From the IMG/VR virus record IMGVR_UViG_3300047319_000798, positions 13,971-77,970 of that record: a stretch of 64,000 nt of DNA; one strand, written 5' to 3'. Source of the stretch: a virus. Shown one piece after another: positions 40,825 through 61,623 of this stretch (the stretch's first letter is position 1; each line of letters opens with the position of its first letter). The notes below the pieces were generated by a model. It was given only the letters and a program-made list of their open reading frames with translations, made no database searches and was not told where the DNA came from. A program made the position numbers and the translations under genes.

Positions 40825-41408
40825 ATGGCCAAGAGTGTCTTGGCGGTTTCATCTGGAAATTGCTGCTGCATAAAGAAATTGAGGCGGCGCAGCACATAGG
40901 CGCGGATTGCCCGCGCTTCCTCTGGGGTAAACGCGCCCAGCATAGCGTAAGCCGCGTCAAGCGTTCTCACCGCCACAGTCCAGCCGAACCGCGAACCTAG
41001 CGTGGTTTCCACCATACCCTCTTCCGCCATCTCGATCAGCTCAGCTATCTTGGCGTGCTTGGCCATCTTGCATTCCAGCGGGATATTGAACCCCCAGAAC
41101 GCGCTCTGGCTGGTCTTGGCCTTGTCCTCAACCTCCTGGAACCGACGGCGCAGCTCCGGGTTGTTGCGCTTCACCGGGTAAGGCGGATCACCCGTGATGA
41201 TCTCGCCGCTATCGTGGAACATAATGTATAGAAACGTCTCCTGGTCTGGTGGCCCGAATAGACAAGTGTAGACGCGTAGCAACTGCCAGGTATGCTCAGC
41301 CACCGTCTGCCGCCGGATAGTGGGCCACGTGTGGTAACGTTCCACTGTACCTGCGAGGCGCAGGTCCATTACAATCATACGCGCCGCGCCGTTCTGATGA
41401 TCGGTCAT
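40809..41408 (-). CDS. HD-domain (YfbR/DatZ-like) deoxynucleotide phosphohydrolase
   Basis: RY..QTVAEH..HDSGEIITGDPPYPVK motif. Confidence 0.8.
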   Translation of the reverse strand: MTDHQNGAARMIVMDLRLAGTVERYHTWPTIRRQTVAEHTWQLLRVYTCLFGPPDQETFLYIMFHDSGEIITGDPPYPVKRNNPELRRRFQEVEDKAKTSQSAFWGFNIPLECKMAKHAKIAELIEMAEEGMVETTLGSRFGWTVAVRTLDAAYAMLGAFTPEEARAIRAYVLRRLNFFMQQQFPDETAKTLLAMWREF

Positions 41409-42514
41409 ACGGCGGTCTTAATTGTATTAGAGTGCGCGGTCAAGTCTTTTTTCGCGTGACGATGTAACCATTCTATACCGGCTTGTTTCCAATCTGGGGC
41501 GTTTACAAAGGTCATAAGGTGGTGGGCACTGGGCTGATTCTTGTGTTTGTAGAAATAATAGGCGCTGGCCATGTAGTATACATCTTCAAGGAATGGGTTG
41601 TTGACGCTGCTGAATGGTATATCATTCCCCGGGCCAATGGTATGAACCTTGTCAAGGGCATTCCATAACCGTTTGAGGTCTTGATCAAACCTGCCGGCAT
41701 CACCCATAAGCGGGGTCACCGGCCCATAATCCTCTAGCCCCGTGGCTAGGGCGAGGTAAACCTGGTCAACGGTACACTTACTGGACAGTTTAGCGCCTTT
41801 GTAAAGGCGTTCCCATACGTCCACGTACATATGGAAATCATTGGTGAACTGCGTGTACTGGCCGACACCTACGCCCACCTTGCTGGCGACGTACTCCTGA
41901 AGGAAGGAGAGATGGACGGCGTTGGCCCCGTATGCGCCCCACAGAATGTCGTTCGACCGGTTGCTCACGGTCATGTCCAGACAGCCGTAACGGATGCGGA
42001 ACATCACCTGTAGGTTACAGGGCTTGGCCAGGGTGGTGGTTAGGTCTTCTGGGTCCCACATAGTGAGCACGGCGCGGCGGGTGGTGGGGTCCGCCTTGAT
42101 TAGCTTGATTACCTCATCGAGCTGGTCGAAGCCCCAGTGGTGGCGCCAGCGATAGCCGTAGCCATCGGTGATCACCCCTTTATAGCCGAACCGGGTGCCA
42201 AAGTCCTTGATGTAGAAGTCCAGAGGCGCAGCGTCCTCCCGCCCCGCCAGCATCCACATAGCCTCGACCAGGTGGAAGAATGGATTGGCGTTCCGCACAG
42301 GACTCAGCAACACCCTCTGGGCGGGTGAGCGATAAATGGTGGCCACCGGCCCCTCGGGATAGGCGATAACCGGGCCGTTTCGGCTATCCTGCACTTCTCC
42401 GTGGCGGAGGAGCAGCATAATGCCACGGGGCAAAGCCTCGCGAACATTCTCCACAGTGAATCTAAACATGCCTTCCCTCGCCAAATCTCCCAGCTCAATC
42501 GCCATACGACACAT
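41405..42514 (-). CDS. Thymidylate synthase-family dUMP hydroxymethylase
   Basis: YGYRWR, TRRAVLTMWDP, catalytic PCN, RSND..WGAYGAN (Asn implies a dUMP substrate), FHMY; hypermodification gene context. Confidence 0.8.
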   Translation of the reverse strand: MCRMAIELGDLAREGMFRFTVENVREALPRGIMLLLRHGEVQDSRNGPVIAYPEGPVATIYRSPAQRVLLSPVRNANPFFHLVEAMWMLAGREDAAPLDFYIKDFGTRFGYKGVITDGYGYRWRHHWGFDQLDEVIKLIKADPTTRRAVLTMWDPEDLTTTLAKPCNLQVMFRIRYGCLDMTVSNRSNDILWGAYGANAVHLSFLQEYVASKVGVGVGQYTQFTNDFHMYVDVWERLYKGAKLSSKCTVDQVYLALATGLEDYGPVTPLMGDAGRFDQDLKRLWNALDKVHTIGPGNDIPFSSVNNPFLEDVYYMASAYYFYKHKNQPSAHHLMTFVNAPDWKQAGIEWLHRHAKKDLTAHSNTIKTAV

Positions 42515-43064
42515 CCACCAGTTCGAGCACCCGCTGAAAGGCTGATTCTCTATCTAGCCGTTCGACCGGCACCCCGATAGCCTTCAATTTCTTGGTATTG
42601 GAGCTGATCGAAACAACCTTGTCAGCCACCAGTCCCGGCTTGAGCGGCTTGTAGTTGCGCATGGATACTACGCGCCGCTCGTTGATATCGGCCTCACACT
42701 GCTCGATTGGCGTGGTTAGCTCGATTATATGTAAACCAGACGTGGCCCGGTGGAGGCGCGCTAGCCGGTCGATACCATACATGGAGATGATCACGCCCTC
42801 GAAGATCACGTGGTTCTGATGGCGGTCAAGCTCGGCTATCGTGGACATGACCCAGTCCGCGATACCCTTGGCGCTGAAATTGTCGCAACCGCCAGTCGGC
42901 GTCTCGTACGGACCCACCACCGCTATGTTGCTCTTGGTGCTCTGGTAGCCGATGGGCTTCTTCTTGTCGCCCAGGATACCAAGCCACGGCCCGCGCGCCT
43001 CCATGACCCGGCGTACCAGGGTGGACTTGCCCGCGCCGTTAGTTCCCCGGATATTGATGAGCAT
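42495..43064 (-). CDS. P-loop nucleotide kinase 1
   Basis: IRGTNGAGKST Walker A; GGCD; VIFEG Walker B. Confidence 0.8.
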   Translation of the reverse strand: MLINIRGTNGAGKSTLVRRVMEARGPWLGILGDKKKPIGYQSTKSNIAVVGPYETPTGGCDNFSAKGIADWVMSTIAELDRHQNHVIFEGVIISMYGIDRLARLHRATSGLHIIELTTPIEQCEADINERRVVSMRNYKPLKPGLVADKVVSISSNTKKLKAIGVPVERLDRESAFQRVLELVDVSYGD

Positions 43065-43260
43065 ATATCCACTCCTGGACCGCGTGCGCGGCGGCAAGAT
43101 ACTCTGCGCTGGGCGTCTTGGTGATCTCTTGCCCGGGCTGATATGTTGCCCAGATGCGTTTGCGTAGGTGGGCGGGCAAGCGGAACCAGTGTTCGCGGCA
43201 CCCCCACAGCTTGGGTGGCACCGCCTTGGGGCAACCGGGCCAGTGACAATGGTGGGTCAT
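43039..43260 (-). CDS. Small Cys/His zinc-binding protein
   Basis: HHCHWPGC..WGCREHW motif. Confidence 0.6.
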   Translation of the reverse strand: MTHHCHWPGCPKAVPPKLWGCREHWFRLPAHLRKRIWATYQPGQEITKTPSAEYLAAAHAVQEWIYAHQYPGN

Positions 43261-43577
43261 CGGTGCCCCTTAATGTCCATGGCGTGCTTAACGATCAGCG
43301 AGGCAAACGCTAGCGCCTCTTCCGGCGGCAAGGCGAACCAGGCAGTGGGCTTGAAGAAATCCACACGCACCGTTTTGCGATACGTGGTGATGGCGATGTT
43401 GAGACCGCCTTCATCCGTGGCATCTAGCTTACCCTTGGGAAAGTCGCCAGTGGGGCCGAGTTTGTGCTCACTCATCATTGCCATCCGCAGAAAGTGGTTT
43501 GTTGCGCCGATGTTGTATTGGGTGGCTAGCCGCTCTAGGTGCGGTAGCATGCTGGTGATAAATTCCTCGTCAGTCAC
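43257..43577 (-). CDS. Hypothetical protein
   Basis: 106 aa; G.TG.FP.GKL...DEG motif; coupled. Confidence 0.6.
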   Translation of the reverse strand: MTDEEFITSMLPHLERLATQYNIGATNHFLRMAMMSEHKLGPTGDFPKGKLDATDEGGLNIAITTYRKTVRVDFFKPTAWFALPPEEALAFASLIVKHAMDIKGHR

Positions 43578-43924
43578 ACGCTTATCCTCAACGTCCCTGC
43601 TGGGCCGTTATTGTCTGATTCGGCGTTGATCAGATAACGCATGGGGGCGACCGGCCAAGGTGCCCGATCAGTAACTGGCCAGGATATCGGCCCTATGTCT
43701 GGCAAGCAGAACCGACCACCGGTGCCGCTGCCATAGGTGTAGCCTATCGCGGCAAACAGTTCCGGGTAATCCTTGACCCGAACCAGTGCGCCGTTGCAAA
43801 TCAAGTGTTGGGGGCGGATTATCGGCGGCCACGGAGCGCGCGGCATTAGCATGAGCGAGGGCAGCCGCACGATAGCGGGCGCAGCGATTAGACCGGCGAA
43901 GAAAGAACGTCTGTCGAGGGTCAT
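43574..43924 (-). CDS. Tail-collar-domain protein with twin-arginine-like N-terminus
   Basis: MTLDRRSFFAGLIAAPAIVR; LICNG..YPELFAAIGYTYG..FCLPD; ATGA overlap at the start. Confidence 0.65.
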   Translation of the reverse strand: MTLDRRSFFAGLIAAPAIVRLPSLMLMPRAPWPPIIRPQHLICNGALVRVKDYPELFAAIGYTYGSGTGGRFCLPDIGPISWPVTDRAPWPVAPMRYLINAESDNNGPAGTLRISV

Positions 43925-44472
43925 AGGAACCACGTGATCATCGAATAGCGTATGCCGGTGTTGACCGGTAGGATTTGATGGGGATACATGAACTGGGGCG
44001 GGAACATGAGCGCGCAGCCGCCGCGCAGCCGGAACGGTTCGTCATCCCAGAACTTGAATTCACCACCAGTGTATTCGTTGTTGAGAGCTATCGACATTGA
44101 CAGCACCCGGGGCACCATATCGTCGCGGTGCTGGCCGATGAACTGGCCCGGTTCGTAGCGCAGAATATCGAAGCCGGAATCAGAGCGTGAGGTCAGCGGG
44201 AACTTGCCCCTGTAGATGTTGAGAGCACGCAGGGAGGCGTCGAGCAGGATATCGTCGGCCCGCTTGGCTATCCCGAGCTTAGCGGGCGTCAGAGGGTAGT
44301 TGCCCATTACTGCCGCTGAGAGAGGGAACGTGGTGCAGGTGCGCTCGGGGTAATCCGGCGACGCATTGGGCACGCGCCACTGCTCGCCCTCTGTGACGCT
44401 TAAAATTTCCTTACACGTCAGTGGGTCCAGAAGGGGCTCAGTGACCATGATGAATTCTTTGAGGTCCGCCAT
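43921..44472 (-). CDS. 2OG-Fe(II) oxygenase (prolyl-4-hydroxylase-like)
   Basis: ILRY..HRD (HxD), LNNEYTGGEF, distal H in YPHQI, RYS. Confidence 0.85.
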   Translation of the reverse strand: MADLKEFIMVTEPLLDPLTCKEILSVTEGEQWRVPNASPDYPERTCTTFPLSAAVMGNYPLTPAKLGIAKRADDILLDASLRALNIYRGKFPLTSRSDSGFDILRYEPGQFIGQHRDDMVPRVLSMSIALNNEYTGGEFKFWDDEPFRLRGGCALMFPPQFMYPHQILPVNTGIRYSMITWFL

Positions 44473-44549
44473 CGCTGGTCTCCTATAGCAACACCCACAG
44501 CACTTTCTATCCGATTTGCAACACGGGAAGCGACAGGTGGCGAACGGAT

Positions 44550-44801
44550 TCACCGCTTGTTCCAATACGCTGCCAGGTCAGCAAGCTGGACTGGGGTGGG
44601 CCGCGCGATGGTGGTCTTGTCGCCCGCCCGCTCACTCTTGCGAATTTCTTCGCCAGCGCATTGCCAACACCAGATAGCGTCAGCGTGAGGGGAGCTAACC
44701 GCCACCCACACGTCCGCGCCGCATAGGTCGCAGAACCCGGGTTGCGACTGGACTGGCGGGCTGAGCACATCCTCGCAACGTAGACAGACTAGGGGGTTCA
44801 T
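44550..44801 (-). CDS. Small zinc-finger protein
   Basis: CxxC motifs (CLRC, CDLC, CWQC). Confidence 0.5.
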   Translation of the reverse strand: MNPLVCLRCEDVLSPPVQSQPGFCDLCGADVWVAVSSPHADAIWCWQCAGEEIRKSERAGDKTTIARPTPVQLADLAAYWNKR

Positions 44802-44803
44802 GG

Positions 44804-45463
44804 TTATGCCGCCGGTAGAAGCAACAGCGCTTCGTTGTGCATATGCGCCAGAGCGCGAAGGCCCTCAATCCCGTCCCTCTTGGCCTCAGCCACCAGTATC
44901 GGAAGGCCGGAATCAATGGACTGCTCGATTTCACCCCGCGTGGCTACCCGGCCCTCAGCGTACCAGTCCACCCGGATAGGCTTACCCAGCCGGAATAACA
45001 CGCCCTGGCCCGCTTGGAAAGGCTTGGCCTTGGCGCACTGATAGAGCGCCACCGCGCCGGGGTTGCGCGGGATCATGATGCCCGCCACCACCGGATCATC
45101 GGGCATGTTCTTGGCGTTGCGCTTCTCACGCGGGTTGGTGAGGAACGGACACGCCTTGGCGGCAAACTCGGCACACTCCCGATGGCACGGCGGTTCGGAC
45201 GTGACCCGGTTGATCACGCACATCGGCCCAATCACGTAGATGTTAGACTGGCCCTCCATAGACCCACCGCAAATCCAGCACTTACGGCGGTTATGCGCCA
45301 TCCACAGCTTACCCGGGCCGATGATGCGAAAGTCAGGCTCGCCTGTACCGGCGGGCACGGCTCTGCCGTCCTGCATCCAACAGATGAACCACGGCACCGG
45401 ATAGCCCCGGCCATCACGGGGCAGCCGGGCAATGCGCTCGGGCATTGGGGGCAGGGCGATCAT
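44804..45463 (-). CDS. Cys/His-rich conserved hypothetical protein
   Basis: GYPVPWF..CWICG..GPMC..EPPCHRECA..ACPFL. Confidence 0.65.
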   Translation of the reverse strand: MIALPPMPERIARLPRDGRGYPVPWFICWMQDGRAVPAGTGEPDFRIIGPGKLWMAHNRRKCWICGGSMEGQSNIYVIGPMCVINRVTSEPPCHRECAEFAAKACPFLTNPREKRNAKNMPDDPVVAGIMIPRNPGAVALYQCAKAKPFQAGQGVLFRLGKPIRVDWYAEGRVATRGEIEQSIDSGLPILVAEAKRDGIEGLRALAHMHNEALLLLPAA

Positions 45464-46164
45464 ATGTTGCGTCCTCTTTGACCAAGTGCGCGTTGATCCG
45501 CTAGGAACTCATTGAGTGGCTGTGTGCCTTTTTTGGAATTACAAGGGTGGCATAGGGCAACGCAATTGCTCTGTATGGTTCTGCCCCCCTCAGCCCAAGG
45601 AACCATGTGATCACCAACTGGTAACAAGAACGCATCGAATACCCCATTACACCCAAGACACTTACCATGTTGGCCAACCGCTGACTGCGCAACTTCAGTA
45701 TCATAAAACATGCGGCGGGTATCGCGCTCAACTGTGCTTTTTACCACCACGAAGAACGATTCAACCTTAGAGTATGGAATTGGCTCGCGGTCCTGGATGT
45801 AGGTTCTAACCATCCTCCATACGCGGTCACGCTCCGGGCTTCTATCCCCGTTCTTCTTGAACTCATCTTTGTTAGATGTGCTTAACAGCTCCAGCATATC
45901 TTTATCACGTCCGATGGGATGGGTTAATCCACCCTGTCGACCTTTCCCGCCGCCATCCGCCTCCAAGCCTTTGATATATTGGTCAAGGTACGGATCAATC
46001 CAAGGCATTAGGGAATGGGCAAGGTCAATGGCGGTTGCCCCCGTCAATTCAACAGGGCTATCCATCCACTTTGCTGTTCTCATCACATACATGAATAACT
46101 TGACTTCTGGGGGTCGTGGCCGGTTACGGCTTGGTGTGTATCGAGTTGCTCCGCCTCCGCCCAT
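45460..46164 (-). CDS. HNH endonuclease
   Basis: CLGC..DHMVPWAEGGRT..NCVALCHPCNSKKG; visibly more AT-rich than its flanks. Confidence 0.8.
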   Translation of the reverse strand: MGGGGATRYTPSRNRPRPPEVKLFMYVMRTAKWMDSPVELTGATAIDLAHSLMPWIDPYLDQYIKGLEADGGGKGRQGGLTHPIGRDKDMLELLSTSNKDEFKKNGDRSPERDRVWRMVRTYIQDREPIPYSKVESFFVVVKSTVERDTRRMFYDTEVAQSAVGQHGKCLGCNGVFDAFLLPVGDHMVPWAEGGRTIQSNCVALCHPCNSKKGTQPLNEFLADQRALGQRGRNI

Positions 46165-46943
46165 CACGCTGCCTCCCTGAATGCCGGAGCGTGGCGCAGG
46201 AGTGCCTCGGCGGTATCGCCCCACCCCGATAGGTGATGGCGGATTTCATTGGTGTCCTTGCCCACCGGATAGTGCCCGTTCATGTGACTCTTCCACTTAC
46301 AGAGTACCGTCTCCGCCTCCTGGACCCCGCACTGGCGTCGCCCCGCCGCTGGCTCCAGATACTGACCCACGCGCCGGATTAGATCGCCATAGGCCCCGGT
46401 GCCCCGGTCGGGGTCCGGTCCCGCTAGCATGGTTAGCGCCGCCGCCGGTTCCTTGTACAGCAGGGGAATGCTGGGGGCAAACTCTATCGGCTGGCCCGCG
46501 CAAACCTCAAGCATATCCGCCACCTTGAAGCCTATCCAGGGGCCAAACAGCGGCCACCGGCTGGTCACGTGCTTGATGATCTCGTCGGCGGTCTCAAACG
46601 GGTACAATGAGTTGACCCAAGTCTCCGCTGGGCGGGTGGCGAACATCTCCATCGCATAAACGCACTTGTCGCCCCGGAAATGACGCCGCTCTGTGCCCCG
46701 GGGCCAGCGGGTTCCAAGTGGCGATAAACTATCGTTTCTTGCCGCTTTTAACATCTGATCCCAATACCGCCCATCGGTGAACTCGGACATGTACGAGGCC
46801 GCACCCATATGGTAAAAACACCAGTAGGCGAATAGCCACCGCCTGAACTGGTCATGGGTCAGGTTTACGCGACAGAGCGCAACATACACCGGGTCAAGAT
46901 CACCAGTAGTGATCAGGGCGTCGGCGAAATCTTCGATAAGCAT
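46164..46943 (-). CDS. Amino acid:DNA transferase (aGPT-Pplase2/AADT family)
   Basis: DLDPVY, YWCFYH, RGTERRHFRG, HhH-like FGPWIGFKVADM, QEAETVLCKWKSH..GHY..GKD. Confidence 0.8.
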   Translation of the reverse strand: MLIEDFADALITTGDLDPVYVALCRVNLTHDQFRRWLFAYWCFYHMGAASYMSEFTDGRYWDQMLKAARNDSLSPLGTRWPRGTERRHFRGDKCVYAMEMFATRPAETWVNSLYPFETADEIIKHVTSRWPLFGPWIGFKVADMLEVCAGQPIEFAPSIPLLYKEPAAALTMLAGPDPDRGTGAYGDLIRRVGQYLEPAAGRRQCGVQEAETVLCKWKSHMNGHYPVGKDTNEIRHHLSGWGDTAEALLRHAPAFREAA

Positions 46944-47476
46944 TCCAGTATAACCTCTGCGGCGTTGTCCCGATTGACAACGATCTTGCGCACCCCTAGT
47001 GCCTGTAACTTACCTACGTAATTACGGGCACGTACATTGGTGCCGTAAATGTTGGATATCGCTAGCTGGTCGCGGGTCTTGCCCGACCGGGCCAGTATCG
47101 CGCTGATACAAGTCTCTACTGGTGTATCGAGCAAAACTAATGTAACGTTCTGATAGCCTAGCGCGCGGAAAAAGTCAATTCCCCGCGTATGACTCATCAT
47201 ACGGATACCTTCAAACAACACGTTGTACCCGGCCTGGTGCGCGCAGCGCACTGTCTCCAGGTTGTAATCCCTATCCTTGATCGCGTCGCAACCTCTGGCG
47301 GTGATCGCGTGATACTTGCCCACGACCACGAGTGGACCGCCAAGGGTCATCTCGTAGCCGCGCACCTTCTTCGTGGCGTCATCCAGTATCGCCTCCACGT
47401 CCGGAGCGGCGGCCATCACCTTGTCGATGATGGTCGATTTACCGGACCCGTTGGTGCCGCACACCTGTATGATCAC
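46913..47476 (-). CDS. P-loop nucleotide kinase 2
   Basis: CGTNGSGKST; RGCD; VLFEG; paralog of 42495-43064. Confidence 0.8.
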   Translation of the reverse strand: MIIQVCGTNGSGKSTIIDKVMAAAPDVEAILDDATKKVRGYEMTLGGPLVVVGKYHAITARGCDAIKDRDYNLETVRCAHQAGYNVLFEGIRMMSHTRGIDFFRALGYQNVTLVLLDTPVETCISAILARSGKTRDQLAISNIYGTNVRARNYVGKLQALGVRKIVVNRDNAAEVILECLSKISPTP

Positions 47477-48810
47477 GCTGCCACCTCCTGACGCATATCC
47501 TTGAGATCGAAGGCCTTGCCGCTAGCTAACAGGTCTGAGCCACAGGGAGCCTTGCCTGTGGTCTCCGCGCACCGGAGGCAGCCGGAGGGTGGACAGACTT
47601 CTAGCGGGGCGAACCCGCCGCCCCTCTTAACGTATGTCGGCACACGATGGCCGTGGCATTGGTCTGCGGTTAGGAACTCCGGCCCCATTGAAGTCCACGC
47701 CCCGGTCTTGATGGTATATTCGTAGCACAGGGAGTAGGTCATACCGTGCCGCGTGGCAGCGGCCTGATATCGCGTGTGGCCTTCGCGCCGATATGTCTCG
47801 GTGACAGTCCGCTGGCTCCCGGCCTGGTTCTCAGTGAACAGGTCGATAAAGCCTTGAGCGCGGTTCGCGCCAAAAGCTTTGCTGATCCTTTCCTCCATAG
47901 AGGCGCGCCAAGGGTGATTGGCCTCGACAAACTTGACGATGACGTGGTTTGCTCCGTTGGCGGCTAACAGCCCAATTAGCTCCTCGATATCCTCATGGGT
48001 GGTGATCCCGGGCACAACCGGGTTACACTGGATGGAAACATAGATGTCGCGCATGCGCGCCTCGCGTATCTCGCTAAAGTGCTGCGCTAGCGTGATCGCC
48101 CCGGGCGATAACTTTGCCCAGTCATCCTCATGCGGCGTGTTGATCGATTTCTGCATGTAGGAATGGGGGTTCTGGCTCATAAGATCGTAGGCCCAGCCGG
48201 GATAGCTCAGGCGGGAAAGGAAGAAGATGGGGAGGCCCGCGTTAACGAAAGCCTCCGCGCCGCGCTGGGTATTATGGTAATAATCCTCCAGCGACAGGAA
48301 GGGGTCTGTAAAGCTGGAGAAATACCCGGCCTGGGCGTGCTTCATGGTGCCCAGTTGCTTAGCCACCATATCGCCATATCCAATCGGCACAGTGGCCAGT
48401 CCGGACCCACGATAGCCGCGATGGCCGGAATTGATGTAACAGAACCGACACCCAACAGCGCAATAGCCGCCATAAGGCTGAGTAAGGACAGCGTTCGTTT
48501 CACAGGGGCGCTCCCGCTTGCCCTTGATCGCGCCGTCTCCCTTATTGGAGTACCAGCCGCGAAGGTCTTGGCCCTTGTCGAGCCGAATGTGGGGGATTGG
48601 ATCCAGATAGATGGTTTGCTCCACCATCTTATCGGAGCCGCGCATCATCGATATCTTGCCGTCGCGCGCCCGAATAGAGCGGCCTGTGACCGGGTCATCA
48701 ATGTGGTTGATGGGACCCAGGATGTCACGCATATCGGGGTCCACGCGCATGAAGTAGCGATAAGCCTCTTCCGCCGCTTCGTCCTGAAACATGCCATCCT
48801 GGGTTTCCAT
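47473..48810 (-). CDS. Radical SAM enzyme (thymidine hypermodification, M6 gp53-like)
   Basis: CAVGCRFC (CX3CX2C), SSFTDPF, extra C-terminal Cys cluster; adjacent to kinase and AADT. Confidence 0.8.
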   Translation of the reverse strand: METQDGMFQDEAAEEAYRYFMRVDPDMRDILGPINHIDDPVTGRSIRARDGKISMMRGSDKMVEQTIYLDPIPHIRLDKGQDLRGWYSNKGDGAIKGKRERPCETNAVLTQPYGGYCAVGCRFCYINSGHRGYRGSGLATVPIGYGDMVAKQLGTMKHAQAGYFSSFTDPFLSLEDYYHNTQRGAEAFVNAGLPIFFLSRLSYPGWAYDLMSQNPHSYMQKSINTPHEDDWAKLSPGAITLAQHFSEIREARMRDIYVSIQCNPVVPGITTHEDIEELIGLLAANGANHVIVKFVEANHPWRASMEERISKAFGANRAQGFIDLFTENQAGSQRTVTETYRREGHTRYQAAATRHGMTYSLCYEYTIKTGAWTSMGPEFLTADQCHGHRVPTYVKRGGGFAPLEVCPPSGCLRCAETTGKAPCGSDLLASGKAFDLKDMRQEVAA

Positions 48811-48824
48811 GTGCGTTCCTCTGG

Positions 48825-49112
48825 TTACGGCTTCACGAGGGTGTCGATCATGTCTTGCGGGAACCCCTCGTTCTTGTAATATTCGCGAACCTCATCCTTT
48901 GTCCAAAGGTCATTGACCCATGGCAGGTTCATGTCCTGCATCATGTTATTGAACGCGCGAGCGTAAGGCAAGCCGACAGTGTTGCCCAGCCCGCGCCACA
49001 TGGTATCGCTAGCGCGCCAGCCCACCCGGGCCTTCTCTTCCGGGGTCTTGGCGTTCGCCGCCACGCAGAGGATATCGAACAACGCTTCCGGTGTCACGTA
49101 ATTATCAGCCAT
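48825..49112 (-). CDS. Hypothetical protein, first gene of modification operon
   Basis: 95 aa; AAGGG RBS; downstream of promoter copy 7. Confidence 0.55.
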   Translation of the reverse strand: MADNYVTPEALFDILCVAANAKTPEEKARVGWRASDTMWRGLGNTVGLPYARAFNNMMQDMNLPWVNDLWTKDEVREYYKNEGFPQDMIDTLVKP

Positions 49113-49135
49113 TGTGTAACTATTCCCTTACTACT

Positions 49136-49192
49136 GGTGAACCAATTATCACCTAAGATCGTCAGCATATCTGCGGGTTTCATTTAAGTCAA
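49136..49192 (-). promoter_or_regulatory. Sigma70-like promoter + variant AAUUGG hairpin (copy 7) driving modification operon
   Basis: TTGACT(49192-49187)-N17-TATGCT; GGTGA-TAATTGGT-TCACC at 49136-49153. Confidence 0.7.
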
Positions 49193-49214
49193 GCGATATT
49201 TTTATGTAACCCCC

Positions 49215-49243
49215 TTGACCTTGCTGGATGCGCCCGCTATGTT
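49215..49243 (+). promoter_or_regulatory. Divergent sigma70-like promoter
   Basis: TTGACC-N17-TATGTT upstream of 49270. Confidence 0.65.
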
Positions 49244-49269
49244 ATATTCCTTGACAAAGGAGCAATACT

Positions 49270-50400: not shown

Positions 50401-50463
50401 TGGTGGCCCGGGATGGGCCCACCCCACAACCGGCCCCGTTGGGACCGGCTGGAGGGCGGGTCA
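50401..50463 (-). repeat. Structured intergenic repeat, copy A
   Basis: TGACCCGCCCTCCAGCCGGTCCCAACGGGGCCGGTTGTGGGGTGGG...GGCCACCA; homologous to 51986-52045. Confidence 0.75.
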
Positions 50464-51468
50464 GCCGATGCTGTGTTTGGCCTTCTGGTTGACCTGAACG
50501 TCCAGGCCAATCTCGTCGCCCATCCGGCGACCGCGATGGTATGCGTGGCCGTCGAACTTCTCGGCCTCACGCTGGCGGGCGCGCTCCTGGCGCTCCCAAT
50601 ACCGCCTCCACTTAGCCTCATCCTTGCGCTTCTGCGCTTCGGTCTGGGGCTTGTGCTTCTTCTCCGCGTCCTCCTCCGACAGGCCATAAGCCATGTCCCA
50701 GGCCACGTCGTATGACTTGCCCTTGGCCATCAGGTCTTTGATCTTCTGGTCGCGCGCGGCGCTGCGGGCGTTAGCCTCCGCCCGCTGGCGCTTGGTGGTG
50801 CCGGGTTCGTAGTTGCAGCGGAAGTCGTTGTTGGCGTCCAGCTCGTCCTGGATGAAGTCGGAGAGGATGACCGCCAGTGCATTTGAAGTGCCCTGGCTGG
50901 CATGCCGCGCCTTTTCCGCCTCCGCCCGGGCCTTGGAGGCTTTGATCTCCTCGTCGCGCCGCGCCTGAAGCCGCTCGCAGAGGCGGTCGGCCATACCAGT
51001 GCGCATCGAGTTGGCTTCCTTGGACTGAAGCAAACGCGGGTTGACCAGTTCAACGCGCACCAGCCGGTCGATAGCGCCGGTGAGGTATTCGTACATCATG
51101 GTGGCCGTGGCTACGTTGGCCTTGCGCCCGATGAGCGAATAGCCGGTGAACACCGTCTTGTCGCCTTTCCAAGCGGAACGCTTTGAGAGATGGCAAAAAT
51201 GGAGGGACGCGATACCGGTCATGAGCGTCTGCATCCACTTGTACTGGGCGCGCTCTTCATGGATGGCCTTTTCGCGGGTGTTGTCGGTCGTGCCGCCCGC
51301 TGCCTCGATGGTGGCCATCGACAGGTTGTAGTCCTCGATTAGCTTCTGCGCCAATTCAGCGGCATTGGCCATCTCGGCCTCGTTGCCGCGACCGTCGTTG
51401 GCGAAAGCCATAAGCTTCTTGACTTTGGAAATGACGGCCTCAAGGCCGTTGTTGGTCTGGGTGGTCAT
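50461..51468 (-). CDS. DUF2786-domain protein
   Basis: KVKKLMAFA..NEAEMANAAELAQKLIEDYNL N-terminal motif. Confidence 0.75.
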   Translation of the reverse strand: MTTQTNNGLEAVISKVKKLMAFANDGRGNEAEMANAAELAQKLIEDYNLSMATIEAAGGTTDNTREKAIHEERAQYKWMQTLMTGIASLHFCHLSKRSAWKGDKTVFTGYSLIGRKANVATATMMYEYLTGAIDRLVRVELVNPRLLQSKEANSMRTGMADRLCERLQARRDEEIKASKARAEAEKARHASQGTSNALAVILSDFIQDELDANNDFRCNYEPGTTKRQRAEANARSAARDQKIKDLMAKGKSYDVAWDMAYGLSEEDAEKKHKPQTEAQKRKDEAKWRRYWERQERARQREAEKFDGHAYHRGRRMGDEIGLDVQVNQKAKHSIG

Positions 51469-52243: not shown

Positions 52244-52256
52244 GTTGGCGGTTCCT

Positions 52257-52538: not shown

Positions 52539-52550
52539 TAGAGTGTATCC

Positions 52551-53059: not shown

Positions 53060-53062
53060 CCT

Positions 53063-53088: not shown

Positions 53089-53091
53089 GGA

Positions 53092-53352: not shown

Positions 53353-53373
53353 TGGGGTTTAAGGTCTCCTTGC

Positions 53374-53435
53374 CCAACCGGCCCGATTGCCGTTGGTCAA
53401 CCTCTTATCTTAAGGGCACGTGAATCTAAAGTCAA
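53374..53435 (-). promoter_or_regulatory. Sigma70-like promoter + AAUCGG leader hairpin (copy 6)
   Basis: TTGACT(53435-53430)-N17-TAAGAT; CCAACGGC-AATCGG-GCCGGTTGG. Confidence 0.8.
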
Positions 53436-53530
53436 CCAGTTTCAAATAAATATTTTCGCCGGTTGGGAAATTTCGCTTGACCTGAATTGGCGCCCGGGCG
53501 TCTAATCGGGGATTCAAAAAAGGAGCATGA

Positions 53531-54136: not shown

Positions 54137-54139
54137 AAC

Positions 54140-55018
54140 GTGGCTAAGGCACCAAATGGTAACGGGAAGAAACTATCTATCGTGGAGACGGGGGACGTGG
54201 TTGACCCCTATAAGGCCGCACTGGAAGCGGCCCGGGGCGCGACGGTATCGCGCCGCTTGGAAGACAATGTTCTTCCGCTAATCCGTTTGTTACAGACTAA
54301 TTCGCCTGAAGTCAACCGGCGCAACGCGGGCTATGTCGAGGGCGCCAACCCGGGCGATTGGTATTTCCGGGACGCGCCCAAGGAAATTGTACGTGGGGAG
54401 GAGGGCTTCGAGATGCAGCCCTTATATATCGACCACGTATATGTCCAATGGAAGCCGGAGAGGGGCGGGTTCAGCGGCAACGTCTATCCGTTTAACGATA
54501 TCCCGCCAGAGGCTGCGGACCGTATCGACATCGACCCGGAAACTGGAACGCAGCGTAAGGTGAAGGGGATGCCCAACGGGGATTACCTGGAGGACACCAT
54601 TTACATTTACGGTATCGTGGACAAGCGGCTCTGGGTTGTCCCGTGTCGTTCGACCGGGCTAACGATAGCGCGGCGCTTTAATCAGGCGCTATCGTTTCTC
54701 CTGATCGAAGGCAAGGAGCTTGTGATCTTCGGATCCACTTGGCGGTTCACGACACGTATGGCGCAAAATAAAAAGGGCGAGTGGTTCATTCCGCACTTCG
54801 CCAAGACCAGCCAGTTCGCCCTGCCTGGCGCTGAGCTAAACGTGCCGATTATGAGTTTGGACACGTTTAACCTGGGGCTTGCGGAGCGTCGTGCGCTGAT
54901 GGCGGACCTTAAGACCGGCGCGCGTATGATCGAGATACCGGCGCAGGATGAGACCGCCACCAATGCTGTTTCAGGCGCGGTGTCTGATGGTGGTGACGGC
55001 GAAGAAATCCCGTTTTGA
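54140..55018 (+). CDS. Putative single-stranded DNA-binding protein
   Basis: LLQTNSPEV..GANPGD..NKKGEWF; acidic C-terminal tail DGEEIPF. Confidence 0.6.
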   Translation: MAKAPNGNGKKLSIVETGDVVDPYKAALEAARGATVSRRLEDNVLPLIRLLQTNSPEVNRRNAGYVEGANPGDWYFRDAPKEIVRGEEGFEMQPLYIDHVYVQWKPERGGFSGNVYPFNDIPPEAADRIDIDPETGTQRKVKGMPNGDYLEDTIYIYGIVDKRLWVVPCRSTGLTIARRFNQALSFLLIEGKELVIFGSTWRFTTRMAQNKKGEWFIPHFAKTSQFALPGAELNVPIMSLDTFNLGLAERRALMADLKTGARMIEIPAQDETATNAVSGAVSDGGDGEEIPF

Positions 55019-55084
55019 GTTTCCCTTCCGCGTAAAATCGCGTTAGCGTTTCACTAACCGGCTGCCACACCGGAAGGTGGAATG

Positions 55085-55123
55085 GGGGCCAGTAGCACTT
55101 ACAATTAAGGTGCTGCTGGTCCC
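55085..55123 (+). other. Long intergenic hairpin upstream of primase
   Basis: GGGGCCAGTAGCACTT-ACAATT-AAGGTGCTGCTGGTCCC. Confidence 0.6.
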
Positions 55124-55147
55124 CTATTAACTCAATGGGGCTATTCG

Positions 55148-57490: not shown

Positions 57491-57497
57491 CAGAAAA

Positions 57498-57720
57498 TTA
57501 ATCCCGGCACCCCGGCAATCCCGCCGGTCTCGCTATAAATACTATCCAATTTATTTTTTTCTCGCAAATCTGATCGAAGGTATGAACCGCCAAATCTGTC
57601 TTACGGGCGAGAAAGTGGAGGGATTACCGGGGTTCCGGGATTAACTAAGGAAGAAGAAGGGGTTATATTCAGCCCCGCCTATAGAGTTACACCATATGAG
57701 GCGGGATTATGGCGGGATTG
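57498..57720. other. Candidate replication origin (25-bp inverted repeat around AT-rich core)
   Basis: TTAATCCCGGCACCCCGGCAATCCC (57498-57522) vs GGGATTACCGGGGTTCCGGGATTAA (57620-57644), 2 mismatches; two further GGCGGGATT copies near 57700-57719. Confidence 0.55.
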
Positions 57721-58040
57721 AACGTGATGTGGCGGTATTGGTGCCGCGATGGTGGGAGTTTGGAAAAATGAGAAATAAAGATGTCGTTGGCAATGAGATG
57801 AAACGCGCGGAGGATCGGTTGCGTAAACTGGACGCAATGATAACTGAGGCGCGGGAATTGGGAATGGGTGAGACAATGGAAGCGGATTTGGCGGCTTTAC
57901 GTAATACAACTGCATCGGAATGTGATGCACTACAATTGGAATGGAAGGAATCAGAGCGGGAGCACCGGCGCAATACATTAAGAAGGGAATTGGGGGATAT
58001 ACGGCACGCAATGAAAGGTGAGACCAATGGCAAAACTTGA
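57696..58040 (+). CDS. Coiled-coil hypothetical protein (start uncertain)
   Basis: ORF track; charged helical sequence. Confidence 0.45.
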   Translation: MRRDYGGIERDVAVLVPRWWEFGKMRNKDVVGNEMKRAEDRLRKLDAMITEARELGMGETMEADLAALRNTTASECDALQLEWKESEREHRRNTLRRELGDIRHAMKGETNGKT

Positions 58041-58293
58041 ACGTGGACCAATGTCGTTGGGCTTGCTCCGAGCTAATGCACCCATAGCCTCCGCTGCGTG
58101 GGTGGCGGTCTATCGTGCGATGTCTCCGTACGATCAGGCGCGTACAATGGCAAAGGCGTGGGCTGGCCGTGCCCGGTGGGCTGCGCGCAGAGCCGGAATG
58201 CCCGAACCCGTCATCCAGACATTCGACGCCCACCTCACAGAGCAAGAGGGCGTCACCATCGTGCCCGGCACAATGCGGGAGTTCGACCTGTGA
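58018..58293 (+). CDS. Hypothetical protein
   Basis: ORF track; in operon. Confidence 0.45.
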   Translation: MRPMAKLERGPMSLGLLRANAPIASAAWVAVYRAMSPYDQARTMAKAWAGRARWAARRAGMPEPVIQTFDAHLTEQEGVTIVPGTMREFDL

Positions 58294-58495
58294 AGTTCAA
58301 GGTGGGCCAGCAGGTGACGATCATCAAGCACAAGGTCCACTATCACGGGATCATAGAGCAGATTGACCCTATCCTCAGCTCCAATTTCAAACGAGCAACC
58401 GGCTATTGGTATCTGGTCAAGTATATTGAGACTGTACCCTATTACTGTATTCGGGGTGAGCAAGGTCTTTTTACCAATCGCGACATTAAGGCTAG

Positions 58496-58524
58496 TTGAC
58501 TTCCTGCTAGAGCGCACTTAGGTT
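58496..58524 (+). promoter_or_regulatory. Sigma70-like promoter, leaderless geometry
   Basis: TTGACT-N17-TAGGTT, ATG 6 nt downstream, no SD. Confidence 0.65.
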
Positions 58525-58530
58525 ACAGTT

Positions 58531-59388
58531 ATGATCGATGAATTTCCTCAACTGGGCAAGTTCCTAGACTTCGTGATGAAGCGGGAATTGATACGCATCC
58601 GGCGCAAGCACGGACATCCGTATCCATGGTCAGATGACGACATCCTAAACACGCACCGGTTTACCAACATCCGGCGCGAGGATGACACCGTTACAATATG
58701 GATCAGGGACAACTGGCGTAAGCCGCACGCCAGCGACAAAGACCTTTGGTTTGCGATGATGGTGGCGCGGTTTATCAACCAGCCTCTAACACTAGAGCGT
58801 TTGGGCTACCCAGTCCCGTTTGACCCGGATAAAATGCTGGCGGTATTGAGCACCCCGAACCCGGGCGGAATATCGATCTGGCGCGCGGCCTACATGGTGC
58901 GCAGTGATACGGAATACGCGGGCCAGAACAAGGGCAGCTATCTGGTTGAGGCCCAGTTCAAGCCAGCGTGGGATAAGCGGGCGATGATGCGCCCTCTCAG
59001 TGACGAGACGCTCAACAGTTATCATATGCGCCTGATGGATATGCTCTACGGCATGGGCAGCTTTATGGCGGCCCAGGTTGTCGCCGACCTAAAGTACGCC
59101 AACCCGCTCAAGAACGCTAGCGATTGGACATCGTTCGCGGCTAGCGGGCCGGGCAGCCGCAAAGGCTTGAACGCTGTAATGGGGCGCGAGCTGACAGAGC
59201 CATGGGCAGAGGATAAGTGGCGGTTAGCCCACGCGCGTATGATCGATGCCCTCCAGCCGATGATCAAGAAGAAAGAACTGGATCTGAAGCTGGACGCTGC
59301 TGATTGGCAAAATTGCCTTTGCGAATTTGGCAAATATTGGAAGGCCTATACCGGTGTCGGTCGCCCCAAGCAGAGGTTCAAACCATGA
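58531..59388 (+). CDS. 5-hmdU DNA kinase (aGPT-Pplase1 family)
   Basis: PWSDDDIL..RFTNIRREDD, ARFIN, GMGSFMAAQVVADL, GPGSRKGL, QNCLCEFGKY. Confidence 0.85.
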   Translation: MIDEFPQLGKFLDFVMKRELIRIRRKHGHPYPWSDDDILNTHRFTNIRREDDTVTIWIRDNWRKPHASDKDLWFAMMVARFINQPLTLERLGYPVPFDPDKMLAVLSTPNPGGISIWRAAYMVRSDTEYAGQNKGSYLVEAQFKPAWDKRAMMRPLSDETLNSYHMRLMDMLYGMGSFMAAQVVADLKYANPLKNASDWTSFAASGPGSRKGLNAVMGRELTEPWAEDKWRLAHARMIDALQPMIKKKELDLKLDAADWQNCLCEFGKYWKAYTGVGRPKQRFKP

Positions 59389-60122
59389 GCACCAAGATAT
59401 TCCCCCATCGACCCCTTAACCCAATGAAGAATGTACTGCCAACGGCCCAGTCGCTAGCGCCGCCCGCGCCTGTCGTGGACATAGTAGCGCAGCGCCAGGC
59501 AATGGAGATTGCCCGGCTCCAGCGTAAGGGGCAGCGCGCTCTAGACCGGGCGGTGCAGCGCAAGCTGGCAGAGGCTGAGGACAAGACCACGAATGGCCCT
59601 GGCCCGCGATACCAGCCAGTTGCCGGTGCCCCCAATGGTCACGAGCGTTTCTTCAATGTGGATATCTTGTTGGTGGGAACATTGATGACGGAATGGAAAG
59701 AAAAGCGGATATCCCAGTCAACATTGATGCGCACGATACGTCCCGTTGACCTATGGGATATTGATTTACAAAACTGCGTGGCGTGCGGCAAGCGATTAGG
59801 CGTGGTGCGCTGGCCCGCGCTGTTGTACATCGCGCGGCCTAAGCCGCCGTCGAAGAAACGTCCACTTGATCCGGTATGCGTTTGTGAGGGGTGCTTTTTA
59901 GAGGATGCGCGGGGCGGTGATTCGCGGGGCTTAGCGGAATCAGCAATGTTAGCTTACACCAAGCTGGCTGAGCCCACAGCTGGGATTGAGATGAGCCAGG
60001 AAGACCTTGACACATGGGCGGCTCGAATTGATTTGTATGCGATAAGAAGCAAGCGTCGGGTCACCCAATATGAGGATGAACCCGCCTATGCTCAGTTCAA
60101 TCACATAATGATCCCCAGATAA
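59385..60122 (+). CDS. Zinc-finger hypothetical protein
   Basis: CVAC and CEGC; start at ATGA overlap (MSTKIF). Confidence 0.5.
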   Translation: MSTKIFPHRPLNPMKNVLPTAQSLAPPAPVVDIVAQRQAMEIARLQRKGQRALDRAVQRKLAEAEDKTTNGPGPRYQPVAGAPNGHERFFNVDILLVGTLMTEWKEKRISQSTLMRTIRPVDLWDIDLQNCVACGKRLGVVRWPALLYIARPKPPSKKRPLDPVCVCEGCFLEDARGGDSRGLAESAMLAYTKLAEPTAGIEMSQEDLDTWAARIDLYAIRSKRRVTQYEDEPAYAQFNHIMIPR

Positions 60123-60132
60123 GGATATCCAA

Positions 60133-60447
60133 ATGGATGACGATGACCCGAACCCGTTAATCGGGATACAACGCAGCCTATCAGCAGCAATACGTGAGAA
60201 GCACGTTGCGCCGCCCGCTGACAAATGGGATGAGGAGCGCTTTCCCTTTGGTGTTGCTCCGGGCGGCAACAAGATAGGGCTGAAGGTCTGCGCCATATGC
60301 GGCAAGCCGCCTACACTAACCCCGCGAAATGACTTGCCCGTCGCGTTCCTATTCTTTACAGAGCTATCGGCCCGGGAATACCGGATCAGCGGCATGTGTC
60401 AGGCGTGCCAGGATAGTATATTTGGAGGGGAGGTCGATGAGGGGTGA
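60133..60447 (+). CDS. Zinc-finger hypothetical protein
   Basis: CAICG..SAREYRISGMCQACQDSIF motif. Confidence 0.6.
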   Translation: MDDDDPNPLIGIQRSLSAAIREKHVAPPADKWDEERFPFGVAPGGNKIGLKVCAICGKPPTLTPRNDLPVAFLFFTELSAREYRISGMCQACQDSIFGGEVDEG

Positions 60448-60811
60448 AGTTCCGGCGGCTGAGCAGGTCTCAGTATTGGTACAGGCGACAGATCGCGAGG
60501 ACGCATACTTCATGGCCTTGTCGGCTGGCGGCCATCCGATAGCGCAATTTGGCTGGCCCTTGGAGGGGTGGAAGGATTTCGCTCAGCGTATCCTGACCCA
60601 GGTGGCGGCGTTCGAGCACGGCTCCAACCTGGAAATACCGCTAAGGATGATCTCTGACGAGATGGGTATGACGGCGTTTAACAAGACCATGGACTTCGCT
60701 CAGTTCCGCGATCATTTACCCACCAGCTTTATAATCAATACAAATAGCACAGACCCCGATCATAAGATCATTACCATCCAAGTGCGCCGGATGACCAAGG
60801 TCAAGTCATGA
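60437..60811 (+). CDS. Hypothetical protein
   Basis: Start MRGEVP after GGAGG; coupled to the PLP gene. Confidence 0.5.
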   Translation: MRGEVPAAEQVSVLVQATDREDAYFMALSAGGHPIAQFGWPLEGWKDFAQRILTQVAAFEHGSNLEIPLRMISDEMGMTAFNKTMDFAQFRDHLPTSFIINTNSTDPDHKIITIQVRRMTKVKS

Positions 60812-61623
60812 AGTCGATGTGCATAGCCTCGACACCACTGGAGATATATCCAGCCCTTGGAATGGTGGTTAAGCGCGAGGATTTGTGCTGTCCTGGCGGT
60901 CCACACTTTAGCAAGACACGCGGCGTCTGGGCGCATATATCCAAACGCCCCGAAAGCCTTATCGGCTGTCTGGATACATCCCATAGCCAAGGCGGCTGGG
61001 CAACGGCTGCGGCCTGTCGGATGTTAGGCAAGGCGGCAATCATCTTCTATCCGGTGTTCAAGCAGTTGCGCCCGCTATCGCCCTCGCAAATACACGGGCA
61101 GGAGCTGGGCGCGGAGCTTGCTCCGCTGCAGGCGGGACGGTCAGCTGTACTATACCACAAGGCGAAAGCCATGATGAAGGAGCGCGGCGGCTACATGATG
61201 CCTAACGCGCTGAAGCTGGATGAAACGGTTGATGAGACGGCGCGTGAGATGATTGATACCATAGATGCTTATGCCGTGGAGGGTGTCGAGGCGGTCTTGG
61301 TTAGCGCCTCATCCGGCACGATAGCCGCTGGCGTGTTTCGGGGCATGGCTGAGGTTGGTTGGCCGGTGCCTCTGTTGGTTCATCTAGGTTATGATCGCCC
61401 TGCGGCTATGGTGGAGCGCTATATTCAAGAAAAGGCAAGGATGTGCGATCACCGGGGCCAGATCATGATTTACAATGAGAAGTACGCGTACAAGGATAAG
61501 GCGCAGCCCGGGCCTGACGCGCCATTCCCATGCAACGAATACTATGACCTAAAGGCCTTCCGCTGGTATCAGCGGATTGGGCGTTCAATGTACAACCCTA
61601 TCTTGTTTTGGAATGTAGGATGA
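60808..61623 (+). CDS. PLP-dependent enzyme (fold type II; M6 gp52-like decarboxylase)
   Basis: VKREDL..FSKTRG (PLP Lys), SASSGTIAAG phosphate loop, YYDLKA, LFWNVG. Confidence 0.8.
   Translation: MKSMCIASTPLEIYPALGMVVKREDLCCPGGPHFSKTRGVWAHISKRPESLIGCLDTSHSQGGWATAAACRMLGKAAIIFYPVFKQLRPLSPSQIHGQELGAELAPLQAGRSAVLYHKAKAMMKERGGYMMPNALKLDETVDETAREMIDTIDAYAVEGVEAVLVSASSGTIAAGVFRGMAEVGWPVPLLVHLGYDRPAAMVERYIQEKARMCDHRGQIMIYNEKYAYKDKAQPGPDAPFPCNEYYDLKAFRWYQRIGRSMYNPILFWNVG

Follow-up and report, generated by a model that had tools for sequence, protein, structure and literature searches.

Known M6-type systems and the phage studied

In Pseudomonas siphophage M6, the proteins gp54, gp51, gp53 and gp52 act in turn to convert 5-hydroxymethyl-2'-deoxyuridine (5-hmdU) in DNA into 5-phosphomethyl-2'-deoxyuridine (5-PmdU), N-alpha-glycinylthymidine (here N-alpha-GlyT), its isomer C-alpha-GlyT and finally 5-(2-aminoethyl)-2'-deoxyuridine (5-NedU) (Lee et al. 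2021, PMC8989533). The M6 genes are ordered as gp51 (amino acid:DNA transferase, ADDT), gp52 (pyridoxal phosphate (PLP)-dependent enzyme), gp53 (radical S-adenosylmethionine (rSAM) enzyme), gp54 (kinase, a 187-aa protein with a P-loop domain only), gp55 (HMUDK_hel), gp56 (Nmad5), gp58 (thymidylate synthase (TS)-like enzyme), gp59 (HD-domain protein) and gp62 (family A DNA polymerase, PolA). Clusters resembling that of M6, as well as combinatorial variants, have already been described on metavirome contigs (Lee et al. 2021, PMC8989533). The present analysis concerns a 64,000-nucleotide stretch of viral DNA ("the window"), corresponding to bases 13971-77970 of the 77,970-bp IMG/VR virus record IMGVR_UViG_3300047319_000798, which harbors a thymidine hypermodification gene set of this type. 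Homology and analogy to M6 indicate that the phage probably makes 5-NedU via a complete M6-type pathway.

Besides M6, related gene sets are found in two other phages. Pam3 (ON014755), a Pseudanabaena cyanophage described as a myophage, possesses rSAM, Pplase2, P-loop kinase, HMUDK_hel, TS-like, HD and PLP genes. RHph_I65 (MN988541), for which baseplate proteins V, W and J are annotated, infects an alphaproteobacterium (Rhizobium) and has the rSAM, Pplase2, P-loop kinase, HMUDK_hel, TS-like and HD genes; its PLP gene was not located within the 50 kb examined. To our knowledge, the DNA bases of Pam3 and RHph_I65 have not been reported. A different branch is found in PaMx11, the pathway of which leads to 5-acetylaminomethyl-2'-deoxyuridine (5-AcNmdU) and includes the glycine transferase gp46, the flavin adenine dinucleotide (FAD) lyase gp47 and the acetyltransferase gp48.

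Pathway genes

Genes were typed with Pfam and PHROG profiles, and identities were derived from BLAST-type comparisons (tblastn, phmmer) with M6, Pam3, RHph_I65 and PaMx11. The following genes, given in window coordinates, form the hypermodification set:

37939-40149, minus strand: family A DNA polymerase, closing the leftward operon (DNA_pol_A 1.1e-36, with a 3'-5' exonuclease domain)
40809-41408, minus strand: HD-domain 5'-deoxynucleotidase, YfbR-like (Pfam YfbR-like 6.6e-11 and HD_3; PHROG matches)
41405-42514, minus strand: TS-superfamily enzyme, predicted dUMP hydroxymethylase (Thymidylat_synt 2.5e-23; phrog_5131 7.8e-93)
42495-43097, minus strand: P-loop kinase K2 (HMUDK_HMUD1 25.2 bits, slightly under the cut-off of 27)
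46164-46943, minus strand: amino acid:DNA transferase (AADT, or aGPT-Pplase2), predicted glycine:DNA transferase (ADDT 3.3e-12)
46913-47476, minus strand: P-loop kinase K1, predicted 5-hmdU DNA kinase (HMUDK_HMUD1 2.6e-11, 43.9 bits, over the cut-off of 27)
47473-48810, minus strand: radical SAM isomerase, 445 aa (phrog_9252 3.2e-168; no Pfam match)
58531-59388, plus strand: HMUDK_hel, or aGPT-Pplase1, protein of the M6 gp55 type (PF18723 8.4e-37)
60808-61623, plus strand: PLP-dependent enzyme, orthologous to the decarboxylase gp52 of M6 (PALP 2.9e-11; phrog_7093 1.2e-63)

All five validated M6 functions have high-scoring orthologues in this phage, with their motifs intact, which upholds the claim of a complete M6-type pathway made in an original prediction from the DNA letters alone. 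At every position named there, an open reading frame (ORF) is indeed present, on two divergent strands, and these pathway genes have almost certainly been identified correctly. Pfam and PHROG profiles returned all the families as named, including the two minus-strand P-loop kinases, with the exception of the 58531 ORF, which had been called a kinase (see below). The profile check that had been suggested for the aGPT-Pplase1 and aGPT-Pplase2 families gave a positive result for both, with the 58531 and 46164 proteins matching PF18723 and ADDT, respectively.

The gene neighborhood agrees with that of related loci. A comparison set of 15 loci was assembled from M6, Pam3, RHph_I65 and 12 IMG/VR loci fetched via the rSAM protein; the core pathway set recurs throughout, in the order rSAM...kinase...TS-HD-DUF3310-PolA. 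In the window, the polymerase gene likewise comes after the TS, HD and DUF3310 genes, a position matching that in M6, Pam3 and RHph_I65, and its product is 40% identical to that of locus L009 (IMGVR_UViG_3300005290_000051) and 42% to that of L016, a locus without the upstream part. The HD nucleotidase is homologous to, and syntenic with, the proteins encoded beside the TS-like gene in M6 (gp59), Pam3 (gp53) and RHph_I65. Further genes on the plus strand code for Pam3 gp33/gp34-like proteins, a PrimPol-VapE primase and an SNF2 helicase (Pfam).

Two promoter-like sites were retrieved by consensus matching only:

49164-49192, minus strand: TTGACT-17-TATGCT, upstream of a small ORF (48825-49112) and the rSAM gene
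57641-57669, plus strand: upstream of the plus-strand block

The former is likely to be the start of a leftward operon combining hypermodification and replication genes, as judged from its position. Two proteins with domains of the DUF series are encoded among the early genes on the minus strand, a DUF6011 protein at 34649-35323 and a DUF2786/DUF7168 protein at 50461-51468, the latter being 34% identical to Pam3 gp40.

Catalytic and specificity residues

The window transferase, of the clade 2 aGPT-Pplase type, matches the structure of PaMx11 gp46 (8Z2M) with an E-value of 1e-54 (phmmer). The active-site residues of PaMx11 gp46 have been defined experimentally as D24, Y47, Y51, E92, W146, K150, T244, C247, K261, D262 and E265 (PMC11472151), and 11 out of 11 are kept in the window transferase, C215 being the equivalent of the catalytic Cys247; its metal/phosphate pocket is preserved as well. 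Overall identity amounts to 38% with PaMx11 gp46, 38-42% with the characterised glycine enzymes and 39-43% with its relatives. A 2026 study of the Pplase2 of phage YuA assigned the glycine pocket to D24, E96, K159, K248, Y257 and D262, and reported that the exchange between K248/Y257 and G/D at these two positions is enough to swap donor preference between glycine and diamines, within a family of diverse donor range (PMC13458397). In the alignment, these six residues correspond to D17, E85, K140, K216, Y225 and D230 of the window transferase. Glycine is well supported as its predicted donor because the K/Y specificity pair and the rest of the pocket are kept, whereas in PhiW-14, the transferase of which uses putrescine, the K248/Y257 positions are occupied by G and D and a Tyr replaces Trp146.

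The rSAM protein is 54-56% identical to M6 gp53 (54%), Pam3 gp46 and RHph_I65 gp002. Its CxxxCxxC motif (C117/C121/C124) aligns with the M6 sequence CTVGCAFC, and six more invariant cysteines (362, 385, 406, 411, 414 and 423) are compatible with a second cluster; two clusters have been measured in M6 gp53 (PMC8989533). The PLP enzyme shares 44% identity with M6 gp52 and 52% with Pam3 gp43 (tblastn), and its Lys36 is aligned with Lys36 of M6 gp52, the proposed Schiff-base residue (PMC8989533).

The TS-like protein is 39-40% identical to M6 gp58 and Pam3 gp52, and 39-49% across its relatives. Its best relative of solved structure is the CMP hydroxymethylase MilA rather than a thymidylate synthase. 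The Cys nucleophiles of the two proteins are aligned, and the base-discriminating position is occupied by an Asn where MilA has its cytosine-specific Asp. Such an Asn is as expected for a uracil substrate, and hydroxymethylase rather than methylase chemistry is predicted here from the comparison with MilA.

Kinases and the HMUDK_hel protein

K1 and K2 share 30% identity, and the Walker A, GGCD-like and FEG motifs are kept in both, the second of these reading GGCD in K2 and GCD in K1. For both proteins, the DNA-kinase family outscores every nucleotide-kinase family in Pfam, and K2 shares 32% identity with M6 gp54, a kinase that has been validated (E 2.5e-13). In the kinase tree, K2 joins the M6 gp54 clade weakly (85/81), and K1 and K2 lie on different sides. 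The end of the K2 gene and the start of the hydroxymethylase gene overlap, and K1 shares bases with the rSAM gene as well as with the transferase gene. K2 was also considered as a replacement for Nmad5 and rejected, being a P-loop kinase paralogue.

Several kinases per locus are a common situation: L009 has three paralogues, at 6436-7098, 11273-11830 and 11827-12396, all in one hypermodification cluster, and L010, L015 and L016 have two each. A kinase gene directly precedes the rSAM gene in L009, and a kinase-like ORF lies between the rSAM and ADDT genes of RHph_I65. Phage ViI possesses two active kinases that give the same 5-PmdU product, pyrophosphate not being seen, and M6 gp54 on its own phosphorylates ~23% of 5-hmdU (PMC8989533). 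A second kinase is a recurring variant of this clade. Its position between the rSAM and transferase genes had been put forward as a hint of an undescribed base; it is no sign of one, because multiple kinases recur in related loci and in ViI.

The kinase of the pathway had originally been placed at 58531, on the plus strand. A scan of the whole genome with PF18748 retrieved K1 and K2 only, and the 58531-59388 protein matches PF18723 alone, with no Walker A motif visible in its sequence. PF18723 is the former aGPT-Pplase1 family, to which M6 gp55 belongs (M6 protein typing and PMC8989533), and GlyT formation in vitro proceeds without M6 gp55 (PMC8989533). The window protein is 30-33% identical to M6 gp55, Pam3 gp50 and RHph_I65 gp008. 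Judging from its motifs and family, it is a conserved accessory protein and not itself a kinase, because the P-loop with its Walker A motif is missing and PF18723 is the only match.

Genes inserted between the pathway genes

The pathway genes are interrupted at two places by ORFs that are foreign to the M6 cluster:

43039-46224, minus strand: putative passenger block between the K2 and transferase genes (Pfam matches and comparison of loci), including the seven features below
within this block, minus strand: 73-aa Zn protein
within this block, minus strand: 106-aa protein
43574-43933, minus strand: Tat-signal/tail-collar protein, 119 aa (RRSFF twin-arginine-like signal; tail-collar domain 1.2e-10)
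43921-44565, minus strand: 2-oxoglutarate (2OG)-Fe(II) oxygenase (2OG-FeII_Oxy_3; phrog_61)
within this block, minus strand: 83-aa Zn ribbon
44804-45463, minus strand: 219-aa Cys-rich protein (no Pfam or PHROG match)
45460-46224, minus strand: HNH endonuclease (Pfam)
59304-60811, plus strand: orphan ORFs (about 245-272 aa, 104 aa and about 124-160 aa) between the HMUDK_hel and PLP genes

In the 15 related hypermodification loci, homologues were found neither of any gene of the 43039-46224 block, be it the oxygenase, the 219-aa protein, the HNH endonuclease, the Tat/collar and 106-aa proteins or the Zn-ribbon ORFs, nor of the orphans between HMUDK_hel and PLP. The 2OG oxygenase had been presented as an argument for a novel base, and this argument does not hold: among the relatives of the enzyme in phages, accessory oxygenases from T4-like cyanophages predominate by far, Tet_JBP (PF12851) has zero matches at E<=1 in the genome, and none of the 80 IMG/VR viral loci (935 kb) carrying 2OG homologues has pathway genes. 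These homologues were recovered by an alignment-based scan of IMG/VR, a single-sequence pattern scan having found none.

The closest 2OG homologue (74% identity) belongs to L040 (IMGVR_UViG_3300021475_000033), a 43-kb record. L040 shares the 73-aa, 106-aa, Tat/collar and 83-aa neighbors of the oxygenase as well as two small plus-strand ORFs, the homologues of ORFs 43039, 43257, 43574, 44550, 61608 and 61874 being 49-78% identical; neither ADDT nor rSAM was found in this record, which is rated only 72% complete. From their co-occurrence, the shared small ORFs look like a mobile accessory gene set common to related phages.

The 219-aa protein belongs to a well-conserved metagenomic family with invariant Cys/His residues and at least 720 members at E<=1e-5, some members being tagged 'ferredoxin' by JGI. 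Six IMG/VR loci have homologues of it, and pathway genes occur in none of the six. AlphaFold2 models reached a pLDDT of 36 from the single sequence and of 87 from a multiple sequence alignment; the alignment-based model returned nothing from the Protein Data Bank (PDB) at E<=0.001 (Foldseek), with a best VIA-align wide Z of 3.6. Among the orphans at 59304-60811, which have zero Pfam or PHROG matches, two bear Zn-ribbon-like Cys pairs. For the one at 59385-60122, an Atlas search gave low scores only, the model was poor and of low confidence, and no family could be assigned.

Taken together, these extra genes look like inserts of unrelated origin in an early operon that tolerates them, rather than tailoring enzymes, because they are absent from the 15 pathway loci and homologues of several of them occur in loci devoid of pathway genes. 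To judge from its gene content, the phage has no PaMx11-type branch either, because neither an acetyltransferase nor a DAO-type flavoenzyme was found in the genome.

Proposed pathway and alternatives

The following scheme is based on homology, motifs and synteny, each chemical step being transposed from the biochemistry of M6, PaMx11 and YuA. Before replication, the TS-like enzyme would turn dUMP into 5-hmdUMP, which is presumably raised to 5-hmdUTP by host kinases and built into DNA by the phage family A polymerase. The HD nucleotidase would probably trim the dTMP/dNMP pool, thereby lowering competition by dTMP. After replication, K1 and K2 would phosphorylate 5-hmdU in DNA to 5-PmdU, and the amino acid:DNA transferase would swap the phosphate for glycine, yielding N-alpha-GlyT. 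The radical SAM enzyme would then isomerise this product to C-alpha-GlyT, and the PLP enzyme would decarboxylate the latter to 5-NedU, which may shield a fraction of the thymines from restriction. With respect to the claim that the base is 5-(2-aminoethyl)uridine or a derivative of it, the M6 base is thus the expected product; a derivative is improbable, as the extra genes are absent from the 15 pathway loci.

Several points weigh against 5-NedU as the end product. The chemistry is deduced from genes, and identities to the validated enzymes are moderate (39-55%). K2 scores under the Pfam cut-off and adjoins the hydroxymethylase gene, and it could be a nucleotide kinase. Nmad5, found in M6 and Pam3, is absent here. 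Furthermore, dCMP deaminase, dUTPase and MazG were not found in the genome, which bears on how far thymine is replaced, and a further tailoring step through co-transcribed ORFs of no assignable function is formally conceivable.

Candidates for such a step are the oxygenase, the Cys-rich 219-aa protein and the orphan ORFs, and it would yield a derivative of 5-NedU or GlyT, for instance with a hydroxylated aminoethyl side chain. The oxygenase gene does lie within the leftward operon between K2 and the transferase, with its HxD...H and RxS motifs kept, the 219-aa protein is conserved and predicted to be well folded, with invariant Cys/His and no known fold, and a combinatorial diversity of tailoring enzymes was predicted by Lee et al. 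2021 (PMC8989533). The distribution of these genes makes this explanation improbable, however: they are missing from all 15 loci sharing the pathway, the closest ones included, homologues of the oxygenase and of the 219-aa protein occur in 80 and 6 loci, respectively, that are devoid of pathway genes, the nearest oxygenase travels with the same small ORFs in a record lacking ADDT and rSAM, and the window oxygenase has its phage relatives among T4-like cyanophage accessory genes and does not match Tet_JBP. Even less credit can be given to a transferase using a donor other than glycine, by which the final base would differ from 5-NedU with the enzyme families unchanged. The enzyme is indeed distant from the characterised glycine transferases (38-42%), and in a family of diverse donors two residues suffice for a switch (PMC13458397), but six out of six YuA glycine-pocket residues are kept, the K248/Y257 pair included, together with PaMx11 Trp146, and the downstream rSAM isomerase and PLP decarboxylase are orthologous to enzymes acting on glycinyl-thymine.

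A third explanation bears on the kinases and is compatible with 5-NedU as the product. K1 and K2 may not be redundant, one of them acting as a 5-hmdUMP kinase, adding a second phosphate or serving different sequence contexts. Their low mutual identity, their places on different sides of the tree, the different gene overlaps of each, the recurrence of two or three paralogues in L009, L010, L015 and L016, and the partial phosphorylation achieved by M6 gp54 alone would fit such a division of labor. Against it, both ViI kinases yield the same 5-PmdU with no pyrophosphate seen (PMC8989533), K1 and K2 fit the DNA-kinase family better than nucleotide-kinase families, and one kinase is enough for M6; a division of labor is a tentative possibility, on the doubtful side. 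A broader proposal, for which we see little chance, is that the lineage of this phage, L009 and L016 has multiplied its 5-hmdU kinase and lost Nmad5, and in conjunction with the 2OG oxygenase or the 219-aa protein makes a base beyond 5-NedU or modifies additional sequence contexts. If true, this would represent an undescribed variant of thymidine hypermodification. The formation of 5-NedU by the complete M6-type pathway is the reading retained below.

Source record and assembly

The record is rated 100% complete by CheckV and classed as linear in IMG/VR. Its final 126 bases (window 63875-64000) are an identical copy of record bases 18-143, and this terminal repeat suggests a circular or circularly permuted complete genome. 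Because the terminal repeat points to such a genome, the opening kilobases of the record probably hold the continuation of the rightward operon that lies at the end of the window.

Near-identical sequence was found in many 2023 rhizosphere and soil metagenome runs. The region is covered by short contigs of four other rhizosphere/soil runs at >=95% identity, mostly >=99%; these contigs are <=2.3 kb long and support individual junctions, not the whole 20 kb in one piece. They bridge the junctions from K2 through the small genes to the 2OG oxygenase, from the latter through the 219-aa gene to HNH, from HNH to ADDT, and from ADDT through K1 to rSAM, and the divergent intergenic region is likewise spanned by contigs of independent metagenome runs. 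The gene arrangement is real and no assembly chimera, because junction-bridging contigs occur in independent metagenome runs. A megablast search of 50,697 phage records with the 21-kb region as query returned zero matches.

Virion and host

Judging from its genes, the tail is contractile, as originally proposed: PHROGs identify a sheath (phrog_205, 5e-19), which was missed by Pfam, along with proteins of the baseplate hub, the baseplate wedge and the tape measure. Comparison of the putative tail proteins with the PDB (phmmer) found nothing. Collagen-repeat tail fibre proteins are encoded in the late region at 21881-23143, 25829-27568 and 29407-30792, all on the plus strand (Pfam Collagen and many PHROG tail-fibre matches). 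The virion had been described as Bcep781-like, a view that is not sustained by BLAST: among all window ORFs of >=100 aa, tblastn against Bcep781 (Naesvirus) gave the primase as the sole match (27% identity over 290 aa). In the phage collection, relatives of the capsid and tail proteins belong to Pantoea phage PdC23, Yersinia vB_YenM phages, Klebsiella phage Chronis and Rac-SA53.

Capsid relatives at 60-68% identity are mostly found in alphaproteobacterial contigs of metagenome-assembled genomes (MAGs) (Sphingomonadaceae, Acetobacteraceae, Rhodopila, Xanthobacteraceae and Stellaceae), and some in Paraburkholderia, Caballeronia and other MAGs. A homologue of the cell-cycle regulator GcrA (3.4e-14), a marker of alphaproteobacterial phages and hosts, is encoded outside the window at record bases 213-734 on the plus strand, in the probable continuation of the rightward operon. 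Two adjacent minus-strand genes of the window, at 32425-33249 and 33355-34116, code for proteins with PEP-CTERM C-terminal sorting motifs (Pfam 2e-5 and 1e-5). Proteins of this kind are substrates of the host exosortase and an unusual cargo for a phage. The suggestion of an alphaproteobacterial host is plausible because the GcrA homologue, the capsid relatives and the PEP-CTERM proteins fit such a host.

Comparison with known phages and related loci

The window resembles M6 and YuA (Lee et al. 2018, 2021) in that every validated enzyme has an orthologue, at 39-55% identity, with catalytic and glycine-specificity residues intact, and it shares with M6 the sub-order rSAM-kinase...TS-HD-DUF3310-PolA. 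It differs from the siphophage M6 by its contractile tail, its capsid and tail being unrelated to those of M6, by having its PLP and HMUDK_hel genes 10-13 kb away and on the other strand, by two kinase paralogues instead of one, and by the unrelated gene block between K2 and the transferase. It also possesses neither Nmad5 nor a dCMP deaminase. A scan of the entire genome for Nmad5 (PF18757) found nothing at E<=1, and BLAST among the related loci retrieved it only in M6 (gp56) and Pam3 (gp51), with a weak match in L015. As most related loci likewise yielded no Nmad5, it is no defining feature of the M6-type pathway; it is not required in vitro.

Pam3 and the window have the gp33/gp34-like replication-associated genes in common. 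In both Pam3 and RHph_I65, the modules are collinear on one strand and the structural modules differ from those of the window, and Pam3 has Nmad5. The first two post-replicative steps, phosphorylation and glycine transfer, would be shared with the 5-AcNmdU pathway of PaMx11, from which the window genome departs by having an rSAM and PLP pair instead of the FAD lyase and acetyltransferase.

Among the loci with near-complete flanks, L009 has the closest replication module, its rSAM, PLP and ADDT proteins being 58%, 51% and 45% identical to those of the window. It also has HMUDK_hel upstream of PLP and multiple kinases. All its genes lie on one strand, in the order gp33/gp34-like, HMUDK_hel, PLP, kinase, rSAM, ADDT, kinase, kinase, TS, HD and PolA, with three kinases; the place of the 2OG/219-aa/HNH block is taken there by other, unrelated filler ORFs. 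In the window, the same set is divided into two blocks that lie on opposite strands. The best explanation of this layout, previously advanced as a sign of novelty, is that a collinear ancestral module was inverted between its PLP and rSAM genes, because the nearest relative, L009, keeps the whole set on one strand.

By present evidence, this phage is a new example of the known M6 system and reveals no new base or enzyme class, because publications already cover the pathway and its enzymes, along with two structures of transferases and the donor-specificity code. Nor is it the first case in a contractile-tail phage, which had been another argument for novelty, because Pam3 and RHph_I65 carry the set, the latter being an alphaproteobacterial phage. 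The phage extends the M6-type 5-NedU gene set to an uncultured myophage of rhizosphere and soil, the host of which is probably an alphaproteobacterium. The sub-lineage with two or three kinase paralogues and no Nmad5 could offer a route to understanding why M6-type kinases modify only some sites, and may be used for probing the role of the conserved HMUDK_hel protein. Compared with M6, Pam3, RHph_I65 and L009, the window illustrates that the module moves between unrelated virion chassis, and tolerates inversion and gene insertion.

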